Part shown: positions 46,631 to 49,873 of the stretch, piece by piece
Numbering within the stretch: the first letter of the stretch is position 1
How the letters are laid out: each line of letters opens with the position of its first letter
Source of the DNA: Octopus vulgaris
Taxonomy: Eukaryota
Reading direction: 5' to 3'
Assembly: GCA_951406725.2 (NCBI GenBank)
Contig: OX597814.1
Coordinates: forward strand, 192,696,001-192,760,000
DNA: 64,000 bases
Made by a program: the position numbers and the translations under genes
The notes under the pieces: generated by a model
Database searches by the model: none
What the model saw: only the letters and a program-made list of their open reading frames with translations
Told to the model about the DNA's origin: nothing

Positions 46631-46943
46631 TGTATATGTATAAGTATGTGTGTGTATTTATATTTATAACTTAATCTTATGTACTTTCTAAAAATCTCTG
46701 ACGAAGCCTAGAGAAACACCCAAGTACCTCAATTTCATCTACTAATTACTTCAGTCTACTGGAGGGATAAAGGTAGAATGAGGTATTTTTACCTCTTGGC
46801 TGAAACAGCTGTAAGATATTATCCCAATTTCTATTCCTGTATGTTAATTATCCTTTTAGTAAATAAATAAATAAATAAATTGACATAATATAATGTCTAA
46901 ACGTTGATGAATACCACCTATTGATCTCCTCATTTTCTTATTG

Positions 46944-46993: not shown

Positions 46994-47665
46994 TCATCAT
47001 CATCATCGTTTAACGTCCGTTCTCCATGCTAGCATGGGTTGGACGGTTCGACCGGGGTTCTGGGCCAGAAGGCTGCACCAGGCTCCAGTCTAATCTGGCA
47101 ATGTTTCTACAGCTGGATGCCCTTCCTAACGCCAACCACTCCGTGAGTGTAGTGGGTGCTTTTTACATGCCACCTGCACAGGTGCCAGGCGAGGCTGGCA
47201 ACGGCCACGGTCAGATTGGTGTATTTTATGTGCCACCGGCACGGAAGCCAGTCGAGGCGGTGCTGGCATCGGCCACGAGTCGGATAATGCTTTTTACGTA
47301 CCACCAGACCAGGGATCCTGGCTGGTTCAATTCGATTTCGATTTCGCTTGCCCCAACATGTCTTCACAAGCAAAGGGGGTTGGCATGGGTGCCTGTCGTA
47401 CGGTCGCATTGGAGTATTTTACGTGCCACGGCCACGAGTCGGATAGTGCTTTTTACGTACCACCAGACCAGGGATCCTGGCTGGTTCAATTCGATTTCGA
47501 TTTCGCTTGCCCCAACATGTCTTCACAAGCAAAGGGGGTTGGCATGGGTGCCTGTCGTACGGTCGCATTGGAGTATTTTACGTGCCACGGCCACGAGTCG
47601 GATAGTGCTTTTTACGTACCACCAGGCCAGGGATCCTGGCTGGTTCAATTCGGTTTCGATTTCGA
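46991..47665 (-). mobile_element. Family C copy with 2.5 x 159-bp tandem expansion
   Basis: Units start at 47270, 47429 and 47588. Confidence 0.8.
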
Positions 47666-47918: not shown

Positions 47919-47959
<41 letters not shown>

Positions 47960-47976
47960 CATACATATACATACAC

Positions 47977-48048
47977 CGCAGAGTGGCGCAGTGGGAGCAT
48001 GCTGGGCCCATAACCCAGGAGTCCGTAGATCGGAACTACGCTCTGCTA
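47977..48048 (+). tRNA. Initiator tRNA-Met (CAT)-like gene, probably a pseudogene, copy 1
   Basis: cGCAGAGTGGCGCAGTGGGAGCATGCTGGGCCCATAACCCAGGAGTCCGTAGATCGGAACTACGCTCTGCTA is 72 nt with a CAT anticodon, GGG/CCC anticodon stem and the initiator-type A54 T-loop. It has C1 instead of A1, a D-stem mismatch and G58. Confidence 0.85.
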
Positions 48049-48204
48049 TTTGCATGAATCTTTTAAACGGCGGTGCATCAGCATGGCCGCAGCTCTGAGC
48101 TGAAACTAGAAAAAAAATACATACATATACATACATACAAACATACATACATTCATATATACATACACATACACACACATATACATACATACAAACATAC
48201 ATGT

Positions 48205-48735
48205 AAGCTATACCATAGTCATACATATACTACTTGGCGGTGTGAGTTACACACTCCTACATGTTATATTTATATATTTAGTCGTTGACTATTTTCTCTT
48301 TTCCACTAGGCCGCTGGTAGCGATAAATTTCTATTGAATTTTTTTGCTACCCTAAATTGACTAATTGATAATTTTCTGAATAATTCTGAGATTGAATCGG
48401 CAGTATATTTACTGCTGATAAGTTTGGCGCGAATACGTCAGTCTTGAAAATTTTAAGACAGATATTTCGGAGGCATCGATACAGACGCCTCGTGTATATT
48501 TGTCTCTCCCAGGTTTTTTACTGATGAAGTGTAACCTATGGTAGATTAGCTTAATTTAATTTAATTAAGCTAATTTAATCATTAATGACACAGAAACGAT
48601 GCATCGTCTAAAAGATGAATTAGGGTAAATGTTTTTAAATTTTCACCTAATTTCTGAATTACTACTACTTGGCGGTGTGAGTTATGGCTGCTCTTTCTGG
48701 TGGACGAATGGCCTGTTAAGGTCACTCCTAAATTG

Positions 48736-48736
<1 letters not shown>
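48205..48736 (+). mobile_element. About 530-bp hammerhead-bearing element with a 22-nt internal direct repeat
   Basis: tactacttggcggtgtgagtta occurs at 48228-48249 and 48663-48684 (435 nt apart); several hairpins; ends in (TA)n. Confidence 0.55.
48513..48616 (+). ncRNA. Type I hammerhead ribozyme motif with long helix II
   Basis: tttta-CTGATGA-a-gtgt...(hairpin agattagcttaat/attaagctaattt)...acac-a-GAAAC-gatgcatc-GTC-taaaa. Core is intact, helix III is palindromic (ACGATGCATCGT), helix I is tttta/taaaa. Predicted cleavage after 48608. Confidence 0.8.
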
Positions 48737-48774
<38 letters not shown>

Positions 48775-48791
48775 CATACATATACATACAC

Positions 48792-48863
48792 CGCAGAGTG
48801 GCGCAGTGGGAGCATGCTGGGCCCATAACCCAGGGGTCCGTAGATCGGAACTACGCTCTGCTA
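48792..48863 (+). tRNA. Initiator tRNA-Met (CAT)-like gene, probably a pseudogene, copy 2
   Basis: Identical to copy 1 except one variable-loop base (caggggtcc vs caggagtcc); 815 bp downstream. Confidence 0.85.
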
Positions 48864-49342
48864 TTTGCATGAATCTTTTAAACGGCGGTGCATCAGCATG
48901 GCCGCAGCTCTGAGCTGAAACTAGAAAAAAAATACATACATATACATACATACAAACATACATACATGCATATATACATACACATACACACACATATACA
49001 TACATACAAACATACATGTATATATACATACATATACACACACACACACATGATGGACTCTCCTGTCAAAGACGATGTATTGAGTGTTCAGCCATTACTG
49101 AACCACCTGCCCAAATGATTTGTTTATATTGATCAAATGTGTGTACTGTACATAATCTCACTCCCTCCATCAAATCGACGTTACCTGAACCGGTGCACAG
49201 TGTACCACACATCAAAATGTCTTACTATTTTTTCCTTAATAAAACACACTAAACTCATGTTCAGTTCTGTTTCATCATAACTTGCTTTCATTTTCTTTTC
49301 TTTCTTCATGCATATTTTCTTTCCTCTTCATTCCTCCATTAT

Positions 49343-49485: not shown

Positions 49486-49873
49486 TTATTTCTTTACTAC
49501 CCACAAGGGGCTAAACACAGAGAGGACAAACAAGGACAGACAGATGGAGTAAGTCGATTATATCGACCCCAGTGCGTAACTGGTACTTATTTAATCGACC
49601 CTGAAAGGATGAAAGGCAAAGTCAACCTTGGCAGAATTTGAACTCAGAACGTAGTGGCAGACAAAATACCTATTTCTTTATTGCCCACAGGGGGCTAAAT
49701 ACAGAGGGGACAAACAAGGACAGACAAACAGATTAAGTCGATTACATCGACCCCAGTGTGTAACTGGTACTTAATTTATCGACCCCGAAAGGATGAAAGT
49801 CAAAGTTGACCTCGGCGGAATTGAACTCAGAACGTAACGGCAGACGAAATACAGCTACGCATTTCGCCCGGCG
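49486..49873 (-). mobile_element. SINE family B tandem dimer inserted as one unit
   Basis: Two 3' halves in tandem, flanked by one TSD aattgacgg(g)aaaagtta. Confidence 0.8.

Follow-up and report, generated by a model that had tools for sequence, protein, structure and literature searches.

A retrozyme monomer between two copies of a decayed tRNA-iMet block in Octopus vulgaris: a probable long target-site duplication

Introduction

Two tRNA-iMet sequences flank a spacer carrying a hammerhead ribozyme in the octopus DNA described here, and the question is whether tRNA and ribozyme form one mobile unit or whether the insertion of an element duplicated the DNA beside it. The window is a stretch of 64,000 nucleotides of Octopus vulgaris (GCA_951406725.2, contig OX597814.1, positions 192,696,001 to 192,760,000, forward strand), and positions given without a locus name are those of the window. 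A sequence-only reading had left both answers standing.

Organization of the locus

Self-comparison of the window gives a 283-nt block in two copies, with 99.3% identity and a start-to-start spacing of 815.

47923..48205, + strand: left copy of the block, consisting of a (TA)n tract, a tRNA retrocopy, a LINE tail, and (ATAC)n
48738..49020, + strand: right copy of the block

The block opens with the (TA)n tract and closes on a short TA run. It agrees with the block of about 280 bp that the sequence-only reading had placed at 47922-48204 and 48737-49020. That reading had also counted two substitutions, both outside the microsatellite; the count is correct, but only one of them (in the tRNA variable loop) is outside, the other being inside (ATAC)n. 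SINE-like repeats with 159-bp tandem duplications (98%, recent) and an older 184-bp pair are also found in the window, at 47270-47664 and 49487-49852.

Structure and origin of the tRNA region

ARAGORN predicts tRNA-Met(CAT) in both copies of the block. The tRNAs are followed by a trailer and a tail, given here for the left copy.

47977..48048, + strand: decayed tRNA-iMet copy 1, with 5 differences from the commonest tRNA-iMet sequence of the genome
48792..48863, + strand: decayed tRNA-iMet copy 2, with 4 differences from that sequence
48049..48064, + strand: 3' trailer of the pre-tRNA, with a terminal T4 run like a Pol III terminator
48065..48119, + strand: LINE 3' tail of about 55 nt with an A-run, which elsewhere follows U6, tRNA-Gln, or a LINE RT frame

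The reference is the sequence common to 18 of the 28 other tRNA-iMet loci. Positions of index 1, 23, 43, and 57 are changed in both copies, and index 44 is changed also in copy 1. A functional initiator tRNA has the A1:U72 pair, an intact D-stem, and the T-loop A in the standard numbering. Neither copy in the window retains these features: the 1:72 acceptor pair is lost, a D-stem pair is broken, and the T-loop A, which is in the B-box, is altered. The Rfam score of copy 2 is 33.8 bits versus 56.1 bits for an intact gene, and copy 1 has no Rfam listing. The calls behind the initiator-tRNA-like gene of the sequence-only reading are real, but they mark a decayed copy and not a gene. Clusters of near-identical intact tRNA-iMet genes are found elsewhere (contig C6, about 111.74-111.76 Mb; contig C7, about 35.01-35.08 Mb).

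The tail of about 55 nt is abundant in the genome, with 95-100% identity among the best 40 of 350 candidates. The ten contexts inspected include positions behind U6 (Rfam 106 bits), behind tRNA-Gln, and at the end of a LINE RT frame, suggesting that the tRNA region of the block is an older chimera of a Pol III RNA and a LINE tail. The LINE that donated the tail presumably belongs to a CR1-like clade. Seven other tRNA-iMet copies carry the tail, each behind a different trailer, and the differing trailers indicate independent chimeras. A tRNA-derived SINE family was considered and rejected, since the copies have no single head-to-tail junction in common and their trailers differ. The tRNA in the block is a decayed retrocopy of a pre-tRNA joined to a LINE tail.

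Such chimeras are frequent (L165:1401-1560, L167, L003-L007, L009, L010, L169, and L171). In these loci, the tail lies behind full-length U6, tRNA-Gln with its trailer, or tRNA-iMet with varied trailers; it also stands alone after TA tracts.

The hammerhead and the spacer element

Between the two copies of the block lies an element bearing one hammerhead.

48205..48262, no strand assigned: 5' junction filler, patched together from short stretches of element and flank
48228..48249, + strand: fragment of 22 nt, corresponding to monomer positions 415-436 and present again at 48663-48684
48252..48741, + strand: retrozyme monomer of 474 nt with a short 'A' 3' end merging into (TA)n
48350..48365, + strand: site of the family's other 3' end ('B', tailed), unused in the window copy
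48513..48616, + strand: type I hammerhead with a long stem II and a palindromic stem III, found by pattern scan, with the predicted cut after 48608

The pattern scan and the pairing kept among family variants bear out the intact hammerhead core noticed earlier and assign it to type I. In 14 hand-picked variants, pairing is kept in 99.8% of 432 cells, and both sides have changed in 7 of the 31 pairs. None of 500 shuffles reaches this level of covariation, though related sequences can beat this shuffle without selection, and five of the eight double-change cells come from one divergent copy (L162). The Rfam hammerhead models give no match at gathering or E-value thresholds, the miRNA-family hits being microsatellite noise, and the single-sequence MFE fold of the stretch is another structure, not the hammerhead.

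The cut-to-cut monomer is 474 nt long with a GC content of 34%. It is 99.4% identical to its nearest copies, with one substitution and a 2-nt gap in 474. The element has no frame of at least 170 aa, except for one short overlap that reads through a TA run. The 5' junction filler contains antisense element pieces of 7 and 8 nt, an 11-nt piece of the left flank, and the 22-nt sense element piece. The last is the 22-nt direct repeat that the sequence-only reading had reported 435 nt apart; the repeat is present, but it is a junction fragment and does not mark a unit boundary. Unit lengths of 435 and 815 nt are both rejected, since the family monomer is 474 nt. Given this cut-to-cut unit and the single hammerhead in the spacer, no circles of 435 or 815 nt would be predicted.

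Another type I hammerhead, unrelated to this one, is found 1.1 kb upstream (46694-46817, + strand) and is likely another Penelope or retrozyme relic.

Distribution of the family in the genome

The genome searched comprises 2.8 Gb in 227 contigs. The query 48205-48736 gives 179 matches at the best 39 of 1697 candidate places, mostly with 95-100% identity and in 474-nt tandems. Exact matches to a 26-mer from the hammerhead number 145 genome-wide (control, 0), and a wider 16-letter motif gives 3678 matches (control, 57), marking subfamilies of 66-87% identity. Tandems reach about nine monomer-lengths per insertion, and each unit carries a hammerhead. The family shows the features of non-LTR retrozymes, namely, a type I hammerhead, short tandem hammerhead units, no coding capacity, and low GC. 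The spacer is a single monomer from a young, non-coding, dispersed retrozyme family of the Penelope type.

The 72 close-family regions consist of 38 from the spacer search and 34 from the first 100 of the 145 26-mer matches, and 20 divergent regions were hand-picked from the first 100 of the 3678 motif matches. Flanks of about 3 kb (close-family) and 1-6 kb (divergent) were examined. With the window copy, 73 insertions were classed, including loci L061-L132.

Other hammerhead tandem families with units of 361, 536, and 593 nt adjoin some insertions (L061:1850-3040, L084:5252-6391, L108:4557-6228, and L123). Amplification of host DNA linked to the insertion was rejected for the arrays beside L061, L084, and L108, since they carry their own hammerheads and belong to other retrozyme families. 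At L126:1681-3559, a tandem with an 844-nt period (99.8% identity, no hammerhead by scan) ends at a TA tract beside an insertion.

The tRNA and the element do not travel together

The sequence-only reading had suggested a count of co-occurrence. The spacer is a common dispersed repeat, and a tRNA-iMet accompanies it in none of the 72 close-family and none of the 20 divergent regions (0/92; one region has a tRNA-Gln about 2.8 kb away). Conversely, the element is absent within 1.5 kb of the other 28 tRNA-iMet loci, which were taken from the best 40 of 502 candidates. These counts bear on the proposal of an 815-nt unit of tRNA and ribozyme, in which the tRNA would drive Pol III transcription and the hammerhead would cleave the transcript, or of a block transduced from a donor locus. 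The tRNA and the ribozyme do adjoin at the window locus, and capture of host DNA between pLTRs has been described for Penelope in the available part of one account (PMC3846280). However, in addition to the absence of pairing elsewhere, the best 40 of 502 candidates yield nothing else that matches the stretch of tRNA, trailer, and tail by more than 87% along its length, there is a single hammerhead per 815 nt, and the altered B-box is followed by five T-runs of at least four before the ribozyme, as the caveat about T-runs in the sequence-only reading had anticipated. We give hardly any credence to the co-mobile unit or the transduced block. The tRNA is a bystander.

Target, ends, and arms of the insertions

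The ends of the insertions should be noted, since they are related to the duplication described later. In the 73 insertions, (TA)n follows nearly every outward-facing 3' end. Two fixed 3' ends are used. End A lies about 131 nt beyond the hammerhead cut; end B, which carries the tail, follows after another 98 nt or so. Head-to-head, two-armed insertions number 46 of 73, with the end pairs A/B in 42, B/B in one, A/A in none, and an irregular end in three. Thus, 42 of the 43 cleanly two-ended insertions pair A with B (binomial p at 0.5 = 5e-12). The 27 one-armed insertions comprise 20 with A, 6 with B, and 1 irregular, in a tally where ascertainment favors A. Insertion features of a non-autonomous Penelope-like element are found, namely, partial tandems with an inverted 5'-truncated copy, a tail at one end, and the (TA)n target.

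A young autonomous family with a 753-aa frame of RT and GIY-YIG, open in many copies, is present in the same genome (L175:2709-4967; L133-L162). It also ends in (TA)n and has two ends about 47 nt apart, the tail being about 47 nt. In 15 loci of this family (L175-L189; L179 was read by eye, and only one end was detected in L187), both end types are paired in all 14 classifiable head-to-head insertions. The frame has a Cys cluster before GIY-YIG, the family may be Neptune-like, and a hammerhead-like motif with a variant core is present.

The RT and GIY-YIG frame is absent from the retrozyme element. The retrozyme and the 753-aa family have only 14-15-nt matches (E 0.15-0.5), and there are none in 15 other Penelope-like loci. 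The 30 + 15 Penelope-like loci and 20 divergent relatives compared include no autonomous partner with common sequence; the mobilizer would be a Penelope-like protein acting in trans.

Long duplications around insertions

Two of the 73 insertions, the window copy and L117 (L117:3608-4525; contig C9, near 54.44 Mb), have a long direct repeat from junction to junction. L117 has a 385-nt direct duplication that runs from the TA tract at the 3' end of the element to the exact 5' junction, differs by four substitutions and microsatellite length changes, and includes no tRNA. This second case supports the alternative already given in the sequence-only reading, that an insertion duplicated a long flank which happened to hold a tRNA. 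Both insertions are one-armed, and both are among the 7 of 27 one-armed insertions with a non-TA 5' flank. Six other insertions with non-TA or irregular ends have no junction-to-junction duplication within 13-24 kb. A 145-nt repeat at L104 was rejected as a long duplication because it does not run from junction to junction.

The 283-nt block could instead have been duplicated in tandem first, through TA microhomology, with the element arriving later on the left border of the second TA tract. The block edges, (TA)n at the start and a short TA run at the end, fit this order at the window locus taken alone, recent tandem duplications with 159-bp and 184-bp periods lie nearby, and the element targets TA tracts. 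On the other hand, among 617 tracts of (TA)8 or more in 808 kb, only two start a duplicated block, and both blocks enclose the element, so that element-free duplications starting at a TA tract number 0. L117 has no TA left on the 5' side of the element, and this order would require two young events to have occurred independently at one point. Duplication before insertion is thus unlikely. When the window, which was selected for the feature, is left out, 1 of 72 insertions compares with 0 of about 490 TA tracts (an estimated denominator; Fisher p = 0.13), so that the case rests on geometry, not on counts. No unoccupied site came to light.

The two copies of the block, 99.3% identical and flanked by microsatellites, may also raise the suspicion that the assembly set two haplotypes or a mis-joined repeat in tandem. 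However, the 5' junction consists of short element and flank pieces in a unique arrangement, which a haplotype join would not produce; the block copies differ at two sites; and L117, on another contig, has the same layout. An assembly artifact is very unlikely. In the assembled contigs of four read runs compared with 48150-48420, the element is deeply covered in 4/4 and the junction 48150-48259 in 0/4, in a comparison where repeats are skipped and no locus-specific positive control is included, so that the outcome speaks neither for nor against polymorphism or an artifact.

The ages roughly agree: the blocks differ at 2 of 283 positions, compared with one substitution and a 2-nt gap in 474 between the element and its nearest copies. 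Judging from the geometry of the locus, the agreement in age, and the templated junction, the 283-nt block is probably an unusually long target-site duplication made when the retrozyme inserted.

Discussion

The presumed long target-site duplication may have arisen as follows. An older LINE-driven retrocopy of pre-tRNA-iMet with a LINE 3' tail would have come to lie next to a (TA)n tract, on its right. An RT/GIY-YIG protein of the Penelope-like kind, supplied in trans, would then nick this tract and reverse-transcribe the retrozyme RNA from the internal 'A' site. Normally a second priming event would follow on the opposite strand of the tract, starting at the 'B' site, and yield the head-to-head arrays; in this case it would remain incomplete. 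The cDNA end, after several short template switches, would be joined at the short TA run 283 nt downstream, and fill-in would duplicate the stretch between.

A more general reading has about even prospects in our view. Penelope-type integration may be an obligate two-site twin priming, with one A and one B start per strand pair (98 nt apart in the retrozyme and about 47 nt in the autonomous family), and failure of the second priming may lead to distant joining and to duplication of hundreds of bases of host DNA. If this is true, Penelope-type elements are a source of local duplications of a few hundred bases, and the unexplained 'tail at one end' follows a genomic rule.

The tRNA-ribozyme pairing is an accident at one locus, and the cassette has no significance. 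The family-level rule of A/B ends and the occasional long duplication are of more interest. A young retrozyme with all Penelope insertion hallmarks and no coding sequence supports the idea that animal retrozymes are non-autonomous Penelope elements, and its many recent insertions give numbers for the near-strict pairing of tailed and untailed arms and for the occasional duplications of 280-390 nt. The genomic A/B rule can be tested directly against the two start sites without strand difference reported in vitro, as far as the available text of that study goes (PMC11167929).

Comparison with known systems

Fusion of Pol III RNA to a LINE 3' end is known for mammalian L1 (10.1101/2025.02.02.635956). 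The U6/LINE and tRNA/LINE chimeras described there (see also PMC4476161) resemble those in octopus in that a Pol III RNA is joined to a LINE 3' end in one retro-insertion. The octopus tRNA chimera is full-length and sense and keeps the pre-tRNA trailer, its tail measuring only about 55 nt, whereas the human tRNA/L1 chimeras are mostly antisense halves.

Animal retrozymes have been proposed to be non-autonomous Penelope derivatives (10.64898/2026.07.22.740005; PMC7229834). According to the portions of these two accounts at hand, metazoan non-LTR retrozymes likewise have a type I hammerhead in each non-coding, low-GC tandem unit and occur as dispersed monomers, dimers, and multimers. The octopus unit of 474 nt compares with 150-450 bp (Cervera & de la Pena 2020, PMC7229834) and 51-972 bp (Li et al. 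2026, 10.64898/2026.07.22.740005). The definition of an 'active retrozyme' in the latter, at least two consecutive units, does not cover the window locus with its one hammerhead; many other loci of the family have such units. Targeting of (TA)n, head-to-head arms, two fixed ends, and long duplications are not described in those portions. Octopus retrozymes are absent from the literature found, which was mostly open-access, and the family may already be catalogued, for example in Repbase or Dfam.

EN+ Penelope-like elements (Arkhipova 2013, PMC3846280; Craig 2021, PMC8557442; Frangieh 2024, PMC11167929) are the closest in insertion pattern, as far as the sections available of these papers describe it. 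Their hallmarks are an inverted 5'-truncated copy, a tail of 30-40 bp often at one end, and microsatellite targets (PMC8557442; PMC3846280), and the tail has been linked to the use of two internal start sites by the RT (PMC11167929). Partial tandems, the head-to-head inverted copy, the one-end tail, microsatellite or (TA)n targets, and 3' ends internal to the RNA, not at the hammerhead cut, are found in both. The octopus retrozyme differs in having no ORF and a tail of about 98 nt, and the pairing of tailed and untailed ends is nearly obligatory (42/43), whereas it is optional or 'often' seen in Penelope.

The duplications of 283 and 385 nt also differ from the Penelope target-site duplications of 8-10 bp (PMC3846280); no long ones were found for Penelope in our literature search. 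They are comparable to those of other non-LTR elements, i.e., 126 bp in R9 and a median of 900 bp in Dualen (PMC9977147). As in these LINEs, host DNA of hundreds of bases is duplicated on both sides of a retro-insertion. In the available description, however, R9 and Dualen use RLE/APE endonucleases and long duplications are the rule or the majority, whereas they are found in 2 of the 27 one-armed insertions of the octopus retrozyme.
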